A stretch of DNA of 41,751 nt. Source: a virus. Its lineage: Duplodnaviria; Heunggongvirae; Uroviricota; Caudoviricetes. Positions 1-40,249 of this stretch are shown piece after piece. The stretch lies in IMG/VR virus record IMGVR_UViG_2563366965_000001, positions 1-41,751 of that record. One strand, 5' to 3'. Under the pieces are notes generated by a model. That model was not told the origin of the DNA. It ran no database searches and saw nothing but the letters and a program-made list of their open reading frames with translations. The translations under genes and the position numbers were made by a program. How positions within the stretch are numbered: position 1 is the stretch's first letter; the number at the start of each line of letters is the position of its first letter.

Positions 1-573
1 ATGTTTTGCGAAGAAAAAGTAGCTCAAATGGCTGCATACCTACTTCTTAAGAGAGGTGGGCGCATGGCATATCTGAAATTGATGAAGCTGCTCTATCTGT
101 CTAACCGCCAGTCGATTTTGAAGCATGGCAGGATGATCGGCGAAGATAGCCTTTACTCTATGAAATTTGGACCAGTCATGTCGAATACGCTGAACTTGAT
201 TCGCGGTAAGGCTGAAGGCATTGGTGACTACTGGTACAACTTGATAGAGACGAACGGGCATAATGTATCGTTGCGTTCAGATCCGAGGGAAATGGATGCA
301 GACGAGGTCTTTGATGAATTGAGTCGTGCAGATATCCGGATTTTAGATGAAATCTATTCTCGGTATGGGCATATGAACCGATTTGATCTCGCAAATATGA
401 CGCATTTAGAAAGCGTTTGTCCAGAGTGGCACGATCCTGGCAATTCTCGTAAGCCTATAGACCTGAAAGAAATGCTGATCAGTGAGGGTAAAAGCGAGGA
501 TGAGGCTAATCGCATAATTGGCAAAATGGAAGAATCTCAGAAACTTAAGGAATTTTCTTTGCAATTATCATGA
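1..573 (+). CDS. Panacea (DUF4065)-domain protein, antitoxin-like (PanA/SocA/GepA-type); may be 5'-partial because the ORF opens at base 1
   Basis: Translation shows AYLKLMKLLYLSN ... MKFGPVMSN, the KLxKLLY / W-or-F-GPV pattern I associate with DUF4065; stop overlaps the next start (ATGA at 570-573). Confidence 0.55.
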   Translation: MFCEEKVAQMAAYLLLKRGGRMAYLKLMKLLYLSNRQSILKHGRMIGEDSLYSMKFGPVMSNTLNLIRGKAEGIGDYWYNLIETNGHNVSLRSDPREMDADEVFDELSRADIRILDEIYSRYGHMNRFDLANMTHLESVCPEWHDPGNSRKPIDLKEMLISEGKSEDEANRIIGKMEESQKLKEFSLQLS

Positions 574-989
574 CGGATTATCAGCCATACAGGAAAGGAA
601 CTGTGCTTGCACCAACTGGACCATGCAATCATCTTCATGTGATTTGTAATGATCCTGTTTATTACCCCGTTAACGATTGTTATTGTGTTTTAGTTGTTAA
701 TATTTCTAGTATCAAGGATGGTGTCCCCCACGATCCGTCTTGCGTCTTGAATTCTGGTGATCATCGCTTTATCAAGCATCCAAGTTATGTTGTTTACGCT
801 GAAGCTATAATTTGGCGAGTGGATAACATGGTTAGAAAGCAGCGATCGGGTGAGATTTCTGTTCATGATGATATGCCAGAAGCTACATTCAATAGAATTC
901 TGGACGGTTTTGATATCTCTGATGAAGTTACGCCAAAGAACCTTAAATTTAAAAATAAATATTGCGTATCATCTATTGATGATGAGTAA
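570..989 (+). CDS. Small protein translationally coupled to the Panacea gene; putative toxin partner, possibly MazF/PemK/Kid-like fold (tentative)
   Basis: ATGA start/stop overlap with upstream gene; AT-rich; segments CVLVVNISS and SYVVYAEAIIWRVDNMVRK resemble the beta-strand/WR pattern of MazF/Kid toxins by eye only. Confidence 0.35.
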   Translation: MTDYQPYRKGTVLAPTGPCNHLHVICNDPVYYPVNDCYCVLVVNISSIKDGVPHDPSCVLNSGDHRFIKHPSYVVYAEAIIWRVDNMVRKQRSGEISVHDDMPEATFNRILDGFDISDEVTPKNLKFKNKYCVSSIDDE

Positions 990-37214: not shown

Positions 37215-37771
37215 ATGCTTATTGGCTATGTTCGCGTATCAACAAATGACCAGAACACCGATCTACAACGTAATGCGTTGAACTGTGCAGGATGCGAGCT
37301 GATTTTTGAAGACAAGATAAGCGGTACAAAGTCCGACAGACCAGGACTGAAAAAGCTGCTCAGGACATTATCGGCAGGTGACACGCTGGTGGTCTGGAAA
37401 CTGGACCGACTGGGGCGCAGTATGCGGCATCTTGTCGTGCTGGTGGAAGAGTTGCGCGAACGTGGCGTTAATTTTCGCAGCCTGACGGATGCTATTGATA
37501 CCAGCACACCAATGGGGCGCTTTTTCTTTCATGTGATGGGTGCCCTGGCTGAAATGGAGCGAGAGTTTATTGTCGAACGTACTAGGGCGGCTTTGCCGCA
37601 GCACGACAAGAAGGGAGGAACGGTGGGCGAAAGCCAAAGCTGACAGTAGAACAATGGGGGCAGGCTGGCAGGTTGATTGAATCGGGAATATATCAGCAGC
37701 AAGTCGCACTGATTTATGATCTGGGTATTTCAACGGTGTATAAAAAATTCCCTGTAGCAAGTAAACCATAG
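37215..37771 (+). pseudogene. Serine DNA invertase (Pin/Gin/Hin/Cin family) interrupted by a 1-nt deletion-type frameshift near 37586-37591
   Basis: Catalytic domain (MLIGYVRVSTNDQ...) is in frame 0 to ...ERTRA; the C-terminal HTH domain (GRNGGRKPKLTVEQWGQAGRLIESGIYQQQVALIYDLGISTVYKKFP) is open only in the -1 frame and ends at TAG 37769-37771. Confidence 0.6.
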
Positions 37772-37797
37772 CCTTACGCCACATTGATGATCGCGGA

Positions 37798-38493
37798 TTA
37801 TGCACTATTTTTAGGTCTTGTAACCCGAGGTGGGAGTTGTTTGGTTATATGTTCAAGTGATTTTTTGCCCAAGATAGTTCTTTGGACAAAACTTTCTATA
37901 GCTTCTAGCATTTGTTCGAACTCACTTTTATTCGGGCTCCAACTGCGATGTGCGGCGGCGTTTCCTGCATCAATTACTGAAGATATAACGCATGCCTCAG
38001 TGTCGCCTATGACTCCATCTTGTTTTAATTTTTCAACTTTTTCACCAAGTGGCAAACCGGGGTGAATTTGTAACAGTTCAGCAGTTCGATCAAAAATCGT
38101 CCGTAAACCGATGGACGAAAGAATGAAATGGTCAGAAGTATATGAAGAATACATTTCATTAAATATTTGAAAGAGCTGACGATCAACTGATTCAAGCTTG
38201 GATAACCATATCGGAGCTTGAAATGTTTCAGCGGCAGGATAGGTAGTGATCATATCTATAGGCGTTTCTACAAATTCACCATCACGATATTCGTGGGTAG
38301 TATGCTCACTGAAGTGTTCGTTGTGGTGATAGAAGACAGTATCACAGCCATTGCATTGGAGTAGGTGATGGTAATGGTACCCATAAACTGGATATTGGGA
38401 ATCCTCCCAGCTAGTGGTTAGCTTCCCATGCACAGTGCAGTTACGTAACCCACCGCATGTAGGGCAAAGAGCCTTGAGTATTTCCTTTTTCAT
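37798..38493 (-). CDS. Zinc-ribbon + DUF4145-like protein (231 aa), function unknown; candidate accessory/defence gene
   Basis: N-terminal CPTCGG ... CNGCDT cysteine pairs; C-terminal LRTIFDRTAELL...GEKVEKLKQDGVIGDTEACVISSVIDAGNAAAHR resembles the DUF4145 pattern from memory; AT-rich; solo gene between invertase and dinI. Confidence 0.5.
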   Translation of the reverse strand: MKKEILKALCPTCGGLRNCTVHGKLTTSWEDSQYPVYGYHYHHLLQCNGCDTVFYHHNEHFSEHTTHEYRDGEFVETPIDMITTYPAAETFQAPIWLSKLESVDRQLFQIFNEMYSSYTSDHFILSSIGLRTIFDRTAELLQIHPGLPLGEKVEKLKQDGVIGDTEACVISSVIDAGNAAAHRSWSPNKSEFEQMLEAIESFVQRTILGKKSLEHITKQLPPRVTRPKNSA

Positions 38494-38573
38494 AAAGTCT
38501 CTGATTCTATATGTAGGTTAAGACCACTATTAGCTATACGGACCTAATAATCAATCGTGTGCAGATACAAAAA

Positions 38574-38598
38574 AGCCCGTATAGCGGGATTTCATGTC
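38574..38598 (-). terminator. Weak intrinsic terminator downstream of dinI (minus strand)
   Basis: CCCG-CTATA-CGGG followed by TTTTTTT when read on the minus strand; the stem is only 4 bp. Confidence 0.3.
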
Positions 38599-38841
38599 AC
38601 TAAGGGCCGCGGCTACTTTGCGTATCTTTTTTGTCTTCTCACCGTCTGGCCGGTATTTTGCTGAGACTGCTTATTTCCAGTTTTTACTAGTGCTGTACTG
38701 GTACTGCCCAATCATGATTGGTGGGGGACGGAGTTGAGACCGCAGCCACGTCGTATGCAAGAACGCGCTGCGGTTGGCTGGTGAACTTTCGATAGTGCGA
38801 GTATTGAATGATTTCCAGCCGTTACAGATTTTACGTGTTTA

Positions 38842-39090
38842 TTAGTGAACAAACCACTCGTCAGCAGATTCCCAGGTATCTTTCAGAGTCTCCTGAACAA
38901 AAGTTTTTGCAGAATCCTTATCTGCGGTGCGTGTAACAGAAAGGCCATCATTGCTGGTGGCTTTTACTAACACCTCAACATCGTCATAACGCTTACTGAT
39001 GCGTCGGGTTAATTCTTCCTTTAACGCATCCACAGCACCGGTTGGCATTTTAGTCATTTTTTCTTTGGCTATGCAGATTTCAATACGCAT
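38842..39090 (-). CDS. dinI: DinI-like DNA-damage-inducible protein
   Basis: [11 protein letters not shown]...[11 protein letters not shown] ... [15 protein letters not shown] closely parallels E. coli DinI; GGAGGG RBS; two LexA boxes upstream. Confidence 0.8.
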
Positions 39091-39103
39091 AAAAGTCCCT
39101 CCA

Positions 39104-39123
39104 TACTGTGTTTGTATACAGCA
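39104..39123. promoter_or_regulatory. LexA box 1 (TACTGTGTTTGTATACAGCA), 14 bp upstream of the dinI start
   Basis: CTGT-N8-ACAG with flanking TA/CA, close to the SOS-box consensus. Confidence 0.65.
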
Positions 39124-39131
39124 TTATTTTT

Positions 39132-39151
39132 AACTGTATGGATAAACAGTG
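39132..39151. promoter_or_regulatory. LexA box 2 (AACTGTATGGATAAACAGTG)
   Basis: CTGT-N8-ACAG; ends at the integrase stop codon. Confidence 0.55.
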
Positions 39152-40249
39152 TCAAGAGGTCTTATTTCTGCTCCTTTGGAGCTCTTCAAAACGATTATGT
39201 AAAGATTTCGGATACAGTTCGGTATATACCTGCCATAGCACGTTTAATGAACGATGCCCTGTAACTTGGGCGACTTCCTCAATACTAAAACCAGCCTCAA
39301 ATAAGCGACTTGCCCCTTCTCTACGCAAATCATGGTATCGCAGATCCTTAATACCTAATTTGCTTCTTACTCTCTGAAATCCCGCAGTAACAGAAGTGCT
39401 GTTATATGGAAAAATGAATTCCGATTTTTGGGGCTGTCGTTGGACGATATCCCAGGCTTCCCCAAGCAAGGCTACTTTCATGTGGTTGCCTTCCTTTTTG
39501 CGTGGATCTTTCCTGTCTCTTACGAGTATAGATTTTTGTTCCTGGTCGAGATCTTCCCATCTTAACCGGCATACTTCTCCGATTCGCATACAGGACCATA
39601 CAGAAAATTTGAGGATATCAACGAACGGAATTTTTGAGCATTTATGAGTAGATCGTTGTTGAAGGCCTGCAATGAGCATGTCCAGTTCATCAGATGCTGG
39701 TCTACGATTACGACGGTTTGATTTACCAATCAAACCAAGTTTAAGTAGATATGGGCGAGCGCTTTTCGCCGGGTTTGATGTGTAATTAATTCCGTATACA
39801 GGTTTGGCCGCATCCAGAACACTGCCAAGATAACTAACATCGTGGCTGACTGTTGCAGGACCTGCACCAGCGTTGTTTCTTAGCCTGCAATGTTCAATTA
39901 CGTCATTTTCTGTCAGTTCAGATAGTTTGATCGCGGAGATGTCACTATCCATAAGCAGTTCCAGCACATATCTTTTAGTACGGCCTGCTTTACCTCCGGC
40001 ATTTGGGTCATTTAAATATTTGTGTAGTAAGTCACGGACTGTAAGTCCGTCAACTGCATTTGATGATGGAATACCATATAGATCTAATTCCATCACTTTC
40101 TGTGTGCCCCATGTTTTGGCATGAGCATGTTTAGGGAATGTTTTGCTTTCCCTGTAAGTGATAACACCTTTTTCTTTGATAATCACATTACAGCGATAGC
40201 GTGGTGTGCCATCGGATTTTAGTCGTTTCTCTATGTTATAGTACGCCAT
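39152..40249 (-). CDS. int: Tyrosine-type phage integrase (dusA-associated class by position)
   Basis: 365 aa; C-terminal catalytic box (R...HDLRR...LLGH-like...Y); GAGG RBS; start 88 bp from the dusA start. Confidence 0.9.
   Translation of the reverse strand: MAYYNIEKRLKSDGTPRYRCNVIIKEKGVITYRESKTFPKHAHAKTWGTQKVMELDLYGIPSSNAVDGLTVRDLLHKYLNDPNAGGKAGRTKRYVLELLMDSDISAIKLSELTENDVIEHCRLRNNAGAGPATVSHDVSYLGSVLDAAKPVYGINYTSNPAKSARPYLLKLGLIGKSNRRNRRPASDELDMLIAGLQQRSTHKCSKIPFVDILKFSVWSCMRIGEVCRLRWEDLDQEQKSILVRDRKDPRKKEGNHMKVALLGEAWDIVQRQPQKSEFIFPYNSTSVTAGFQRVRSKLGIKDLRYHDLRREGASRLFEAGFSIEEVAQVTGHRSLNVLWQVYTELYPKSLHNRFEELQRSRNKTS

Follow-up and report, generated by a model that had tools for sequence, protein, structure and literature searches.

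What is the function of the AT-rich gene that stands alone beside the attachment site of an Escherichia coli prophage integrated at dusA? The window, that is, the whole stretch of DNA analyzed here (41,751 nucleotides, positions 1 to 41,751 of the IMG/VR virus record IMGVR_UViG_2563366965_000001), corresponds to nearly the whole of a prophage of ~40 kb, which is inserted into the 5' end of dusA and combines an HK97-type head with a contractile tail of the Mu/e14 type. The initial annotation, made from the sequence alone, had described a 231-aa ORF on the minus strand between the tail-fibre invertase and the dinI/int genes, and a gene beginning with an ATG codon was found exactly there (Table 1). 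Its product is identical to WP_001514810.1, annotated by PGAP as "DUF4145 domain-containing protein" in 34 E. coli genomes. The results presented below show that this cargo gene is genuine and is one of the accessory genes of an E. coli prophage, in which it stands alone, and by analogy with characterized systems we consider it probable that it is a prophage-borne phage-defence gene, in which one protein would combine a sensor with a HEPN effector.

The GC content of the cargo gene is 41.4% (34% at third codon positions), compared to a mean of 51.2 ± 5.4% for the window, which places it among the lowest 2.8% of all 696-bp windows of the stretch. The gene had been described as clearly more AT-rich than the flanking phage genes, and this is so with respect to the invertase (51%) and the structural genes (55%), but not with respect to dinI (43%) and int (42.5%). 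As these last two genes are equally AT-rich, the contrast in composition holds towards the tail side only.

Table 1. Features of the att-proximal end of the prophage, with positions in the window.
Feature	Position	Strand	Evidence
Tail-fibre invertase, Pin/Gin family, frameshifted	37215..37771	+	Three-frame translation vs pinE; PGAP
Lineage-specific block, 1155 bp	37580..38734	.	blastn vs CX21 (L096) and 23CRST032 (L099)
Cargo gene CDS, 231 aa, stop codon included	37798..38493	-	ORF list, Pfam, PHROG, PGAP
HEPN/DUF4145 helical domain, aa 97-220 (H182 codon, 37948-37950)	37834..38205	-	
Linker, aa 87-96, with conserved P94 and W96	38206..38235	-	Conservation table; coil in AF2 model
N-terminal Cys4 beta-rich zinc domain, aa 1-86 (C10/C13 and C47/C50)	38236..38493	-	
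Candidate promoter TTGATT-N16-TAATAG	38527..38554	-	String present; weak consensus match
Small hairpin followed by U6, candidate intrinsic terminator	38569..38594	-	Sequence, folding
dinI-like gene	38842-39090	-	Pfam DinI, E 1e-19
dusA-specific tyrosine integrase gene (int)	39152-40249	-	Pfam Phage_integrase, E 8e-21; annotation

The dinI and int genes (38842..40249) constitute the att-proximal end of the prophage, with dusA beyond them. A search across 5426 complete E. coli genomes detected this dinI-int module in 724 and the cargo gene in 34, always with at least 99.6% identity, and in all six records inspected by annotation, three of which were picked for their differing coordinates, the cargo gene occupies the same slot. 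In the two closest prophages examined, those of CX21 and 23CRST032, pinE is followed directly by dinI and the slot is empty. Comparison by blastn with the nearest empty-slot prophage showed that 187 bp of the latter are replaced here by the lineage-specific block of Table 1, which comprises a divergent 3' end of the invertase gene, the cargo gene and the 240 bp that precede it. On the other hand, the same slot at dusA is filled with effector genes in lambdoid prophages of the EHEC strains O121:H19 (L097) and O157:H7 (L098). The proposal that the gene sits in a position typical of accessory cargo was therefore sustained: since the slot is empty in close prophages and holds effectors in EHEC, it is a genuine variable cargo slot, and the best explanation for the gene is that it is a horizontally acquired "moron" of the dusA-integrated prophage. 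The existence of near-identical dusA prophages with and without the gene also provides a clean natural comparison at this locus. The contents of the EHEC slots are NleG7, three DUF1076/NleG-like genes, an EspS pseudogene and IS elements.

Some observations concern other parts of the prophage. The invertase gene converges on the cargo gene, with 26 bp between their stop codons, and carries a frameshift near codon 125 (frame 1, then frame 3). PGAP labels it "frameshifted" in strains 1332KP and 720632, whereas the same allele is intact in SX12 and AVS0790; the invertase is probably inactive in this window and in the two former strains. The frameshift was considered as a possible recombination junction, and this was rejected because the intact alleles of other strains have the same 3' end, which makes it a secondary mutation. 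At the opposite (attL) end of the window, positions 1-573 (+) encode a SocA/Panacea-domain protein (Pfam E 2e-19), followed at 603-989 (+) by an ORF of 128 aa for which Pfam gave no match; the two resemble a Panacea-antitoxin/toxin pair and may be a second accessory or defence module. The 55.6-kb record NZ_CP142787.1, named "plasmid pSX12-2" (L147), contains this end of the prophage along with dusA, pspG, qorA and dnaB of the chromosome, and is probably an assembly artefact instead of a plasmid copy of the gene.

The two halves of the protein suggested by the initial annotation were both recovered. At the C-terminus, the Pfam profile DUF4145 (PF13643) matched residues 115-199 over positions 4-87 of its 88 with an E-value of 8.8e-10 (39 bits, gathering cutoff 23.1), and the domain has the all-alpha helical-bundle fold of HEPN proteins. 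Among the HEPN RNases, DUF4145 is a family for which fusions to zinc ribbons are known (Anantharaman 2013, PMC3710099), and the same work agrees with the initial annotation in that the domain recurs fused or adjacent to restriction and abortive-infection components. Nearly the whole protein (residues 2-225) also matches positions 11-224 of the 226 in PHROG 1305 (phrog_1305; E 5.3e-43), which carries the label "DNA binding protein", a putative annotation, and the category "DNA, RNA and nucleotide metabolism". At the N-terminus, the two Cys pairs are C10/C13, within CPTC, and C47/C50, within CNGC. A conservation table was built from 150 family representatives clustered at ≤50% identity, in which the four Cys are kept in 141, 140, 148 and 147 sequences, respectively (94-99%), so that chance does not account for the pairs. 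These Cys belong to a 7-strand beta domain with no close solved relative, which by analogy would bind zinc and is presumed to be a sensor or interaction module.

An exhaustive profile search with the family returned 2708 cluster representatives at E≤1e-3, 289 of them at E≤1e-30, most of which are full-length proteins of ~230 aa. Variability is higher in the zinc domain than in the HEPN domain, with mean column entropies of 2.65 and 2.19, respectively. All ten of the longer relatives tested also match Pfam DUF4145. Relatives of 400-507 aa (P0078, P0105, P0108, P0164) have an additional segment at the N-terminus that weakly matches zinc ribbons of the Lar type, which suggests, on sequence grounds, tandem zinc domains ahead of the HEPN domain. 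A profile search with the zinc domain alone, aimed at fusions to other effectors, returned a 66-aa fragment as its sole match.

The conservation table also allowed identification of the putative active-site residues. Among the 150 representatives, R131, K152, H182 and W185 are invariant, and T132, D135, R183, P187 and E200 are kept in more than 90%, giving the family signature ...D-A-G-[NS]-A-A-A-H-R-x-W-x-P. The canonical HEPN motif Rx4-6H is absent from the protein, as no Arg or Lys is found in the 23 residues preceding H182, between residues 158 and 181. This motif, whose Arg is at position H-8 in the E. coli defence protein RAZR (R146), is reportedly conserved in about 80% of DUF4145 members (PMC13017515, PMC3710099), whereas the equivalent position is I174 here and T, V or I in 141 of the 150 representatives. 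With the canonical Arg missing, catalysis would need R183, R131 or K152, or the domain may be no RNase, and this is the main weakness of the reading as a defence RNase. The label of PHROG 1305 in turn suggests a zinc-dependent regulator with a HEPN fold, which would bind nucleic acids or a ligand and have no catalytic activity. We consider such a regulator unlikely, because the absolute conservation of H182, R131, K152 and W185, together with the near-absolute conservation of D135, R183 and E200, is the pattern of an active or ligand-binding site, and because the mutation H154A abolishes defence in RAZR, in which both R146 and H154 are required (PMC13017515); the PHROG name, for its part, is a putative annotation. 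By analogy, the HEPN domain would be the likely RNase.

To determine in which genetic contexts the family is found, the loci of homologues in other genomes were inspected. An identical Enterobacter protein of 231 aa, 69% identical to that of E. coli, is encoded in L003, L004 and L005 at the ends of three unrelated types of prophage, which comprise a P2-like, a lambda-like and a P22-like type, the last with gtrABC. These Enterobacter copies are located near the liv transporter operon, adjoining it in L003 and at ~3.5 kb from it in L004 and L005, and a conserved tRNA-like 3' fragment lies ~200 bp upstream of the gene; a search with ARAGORN for intact tRNA genes beside the homologues found none, the tRNA-like fragment being restricted to the Enterobacter loci. 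The Enterobacter gene has either been exchanged among phages at one att site or is part of a small remnant beside that site. The Citrobacter copy is the terminal gene of its prophage, adjoining genes for an S24 peptidase and DinI, and on one contig it follows the integrase gene directly. In Pseudomonas, the homologue is inserted between the GpR/GpS and GpV/GpW genes of a P2-like prophage, on the same strand. Outside prophages, one homologue lies beside the conjugative-transfer genes TraF/TraH/TraG, and the Burkholderia copy adjoins Gabija-like genes, a PRTase gene and a reverse transcriptase gene; type IIG restriction genes are also found among the neighbours of homologues. Co-localization of homologues with prophage ends and defence genes was observed at the Enterobacter and Citrobacter prophage ends and among the defence or restriction neighbours of the Burkholderia and Rahnella copies, whereas many homologues have no recognizable defence gene alongside. 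In none of the homologues examined was a partner gene conserved, in keeping with the solo status first proposed for the gene.

Two loci of this survey deserve separate description. In Rahnella aceris (L095), a gene for an Mrr_cat restriction nuclease has a DUF4145 paralogue on either side (248 and 255 aa), with an integrase gene and an ART-PolyVal-like gene close by, in what looks like a small defence island with duplicated family members. In the Sphingomonadales (L030-L045), more than 12 genera, including Aurantiacibacter, Qipengyuania, Novosphingobium and Citromicrobium, gave the same match range and identity with near-identical scores, which suggests the spread of a single mobile element, bearing the homologue, among these genera. 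The matches in genomes as a whole span Alpha-, Beta- and Gammaproteobacteria, Acidobacteriota, Bacteroidota and Chloroflexi. Regarding viruses, a tblastn search of 50,697 phage records from GenBank was negative at 1e-5, but PHROG and IMG/VR do show the occurrence of the family in phages, with 47 IMG/VR viral contigs carrying a homologue. The family is common in temperate phages, and it is also present in a conjugative element with tra genes and in genomic islands of Proteobacteria and beyond.

The region upstream of the cargo gene was analyzed for signals that could separate its expression from that of dinI and int. The hairpin followed by a T-run that had been noticed between dinI and the cargo gene is real: on the minus strand it reads CCCG-CUAUA-CGGG followed by U6, ~75 nt upstream of the start codon, with a folding energy of -12.1 kcal/mol (z = -2.8 with respect to shuffled sequences). 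Its stem consists of just 4 G-C pairs, and a consensus terminator scan listed the site on the plus strand only; as a candidate terminator, it would insulate the cargo gene from read-through from dinI/int. The promoter proposed at the same time fared worse. The string is present, with TTGATT at 38554-38549 and TAATAG at 38532-38527, but it matches the consensus at only 7 of 12 positions, the conserved T that closes the -10 hexamer is missing, and the string was not among the sites reported by a sigma-70 promoter scan.

The position of the Pseudomonas homologue raises the possibility that the protein serves the phage, as an RNase or RNA-binding factor that would act in the lytic cycle of the prophage, for instance in cleavage of host or competitor RNA, in takeover of the host or in counter-defence, and confer no immunity on the lysogen. 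Located on the same strand between the R/S tail-completion genes and the V/W baseplate genes, the Pseudomonas copy is co-oriented inside a late tail operon and would be transcribed with the late genes, and both the functional category of phrog_1305 and the 47 viral contigs are in line with such a role. In the window, on the other hand, the gene is on the strand opposite to the tail genes and behind the terminator-like hairpin, the close relatives of the prophage that do without it show that it is dispensable, and the copies found outside phages, in the conjugative element and in the Gabija and restriction islands, are typical of defence cargo. For these reasons a role in the lytic cycle appears improbable to us.

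The non-coding gap between dinI and the cargo gene (38494-38841) is unusually long (348 bp). Its 107 bp proximal to dinI are common to the empty-slot prophages and contain a 12-pair hairpin at ~38738-38773 (-18.8 kcal/mol) that is not followed by a T-run. A search of the gap for small RNAs or riboswitches gave no Rfam match, the gap folds no better than shuffled sequence (z -0.88), and no regulatory region in common with the Enterobacter and Citrobacter homologues was found upstream of the gene. An addiction module stabilizing the prophage, in which a HEPN toxin would be paired with an unannotated antitoxin encoded in this gap as a small ORF or RNA, is suggested by the length of the gap, by the HEPN toxins of HEPT and HEPN-MNT being among the best structural matches and by the Panacea-domain antitoxin-like gene at the other end of the prophage, yet it is the least probable of the alternatives, because neither an adjacent MNT gene nor any other conserved partner was found in any locus examined, and because the upstream region has no Rfam match, no conservation with Enterobacter or Citrobacter and no unusual folding.

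A role in defence against phages is the best-supported reading of the cargo gene, plausible but unproven, by analogy with RAZR and with the prophage-encoded systems HepS and Tha. In the mechanism that we propose, the protein would be made in the lysogen and kept inactive until the zinc domain binds a protein or assembly made by an infecting phage. This binding would reposition the HEPN domains, which normally form dimers, so that an active site is formed, and cleavage of RNA (tRNA, rRNA or mRNA) would then stop translation and abort the superinfecting phage. The resident prophage would have to avoid triggering its own protein, as is the case for HepS and Tha. The analyses above establish the gene, its domains and fold, the pattern of conserved residues, the mobility, the variability of the slot and the solo status, whereas each functional element of this scheme, from zinc binding and the trigger to oligomerization, catalysis and the resulting phenotype, is predicted by analogy with those systems. 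If the gene produced no phenotype, it would be one more DUF4145 moron.

Among the prophage-borne systems, HepS is a "HEPN solo" anticodon nuclease of the Gifsy-1 prophage, triggered by the tail-tip protein J of siphoviruses. Like the present gene as we read it, HepS is a prophage accessory gene whose single HEPN protein both senses the phage and executes abortive infection, with the same need to avoid self-triggering by the resident prophage. In contrast, HepS-type proteins consist of the HEPN domain alone with a canonical RX4-6H (R100-H105 in HepS), whereas the protein described here has an extra zinc domain of 86 aa and lacks the canonical Arg; neither single-sequence nor profile searches of the PDB returned a HepS chain. 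Tha, from an S. aureus prophage, is likewise described as a HEPN RNase that is encoded by a prophage for defence and is switched on by a structural protein of the phage that comes in, but it belongs to another HEPN family with a different architecture and Gram-positive hosts.

Other relatives share single parts of the design. BxaP and Ishtar, for which defence against T4 and against the plasmid RP4, respectively, was shown experimentally, also have a DUF4145/HEPN domain as presumed effector, but in BxaP and Ishtar1 this domain is N-terminal and fused to a HEAT-like or a beta/alpha domain, respectively, with no zinc domain. DS-38 of DefensePredictor (WP_001313577.1) is a single-gene defence protein of E. 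coli with HEPN and zinc-finger parts, and was considered as a possible identity for the cargo protein; it was rejected because the domain order is reversed, with an N-terminal HEPN domain carrying RKHRNRVVH and a C-terminal multi-CxxC region in a protein of 366 aa. Neither the motif strings of the present family nor the DS-38 accession was found in the parts of the DefensePredictor supplementary tables that were searched. According to the DefensePredictor authors, DS-38 shows that Zn-finger/HEPN proteins can differ mechanistically from PD-T7-4. When folds were compared, the C-terminal domain scored best with the toxins of HEPN-MNT and HEPT-MntA (5yep, 7ae2/7ae8), from which the cargo protein differs in its zinc domain and in lacking the canonical Arg; no adjacent MNT antitoxin gene was found in the window or in the Enterobacter, Citrobacter, Burkholderia and Rahnella loci.

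The closest parallel is RAZR (ring-activated zinc-finger RNase), formerly PD-T7-4, an E. coli system made of one protein, in which a Cys4 zinc finger at the N-terminus is combined with a DUF4145/HEPN domain at the C-terminus. This protein is activated by phage proteins that form rings, namely portal proteins and an Erf-like recombinase, and assembles into an active 24-mer RNase that aborts infection, with the zinc domain setting its specificity (Zhang et al., Nature 2026, PMC13017515). RAZR is the protein RRL46918.1 of E. coli UMB1727 (PDB 9Y9C, 9Y6U). RAZR and the cargo protein are single proteins of similar size (~219 aa in RAZR, 231 aa here), in each of which a short conserved linker connects the Cys4 zinc domain at the N-terminus to the DUF4145/HEPN domain at the C-terminus. 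In either case variability is highest in the zinc domain, and both proteins are encoded on mobile elements beside an integrase gene. On the other hand, the sensor of RAZR is a small zinc ribbon of the RPB9/TFIIS type, compared to what appears to be a larger 7-strand beta domain in the cargo protein, and the Arg of RAZR at H-8 has no counterpart in the present family. At the sequence level, phmmer and two family-profile searches of the PDB sequences returned no RAZR chain at E≤10, even though the sequence set does contain 9Y6U and 9Y9C, as Gp77 of both was returned. PADLOC 2.0.0 gave no family match to WP_001514810.1 at E≤10, its PD-T7-4 model (PDLC04109) included, and that model matched just 4 of 121 family members, with a best E-value of 0.021. 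As judged from these comparisons, the cargo protein shares the design of RAZR but belongs to a separate family.

As the pair of domains was catalogued in 2013, defence was shown in RAZR and the gene was already annotated as DUF4145, the finding is not categorically new. By sequence criteria, what is new is a distinct and widespread family in which the zinc domain appears to differ and the active-site motif is a variant one, and which PADLOC does not detect; the absence of a PADLOC match to the protein and the marginal detection of its family imply that such genes are missed by this tool. It is possible, and we put it forward only tentatively, that these proteins constitute a separate, very widespread family of immune sensors that each consist of one protein, comprising at least 2700 clusters at 50% identity, with a previously undescribed zinc-stapled 7-strand beta domain, a class of phage trigger other than the rings that activate RAZR, and a HEPN domain whose non-canonical active site (AAAH-R-x-W with R131 and K152, in place of Rx4-6H) might have a different substrate or chemistry. 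Validation of this reading would make the family a new named defence system, one that escapes current defence-finding tools. Should the cargo gene prove to be a working defence, it would represent a second, sequence-unrelated branch of the zinc-domain/HEPN design so far shown for RAZR only, and its different sensor fold and altered catalytic motif would help to define which parts of sensing and HEPN activation are general.
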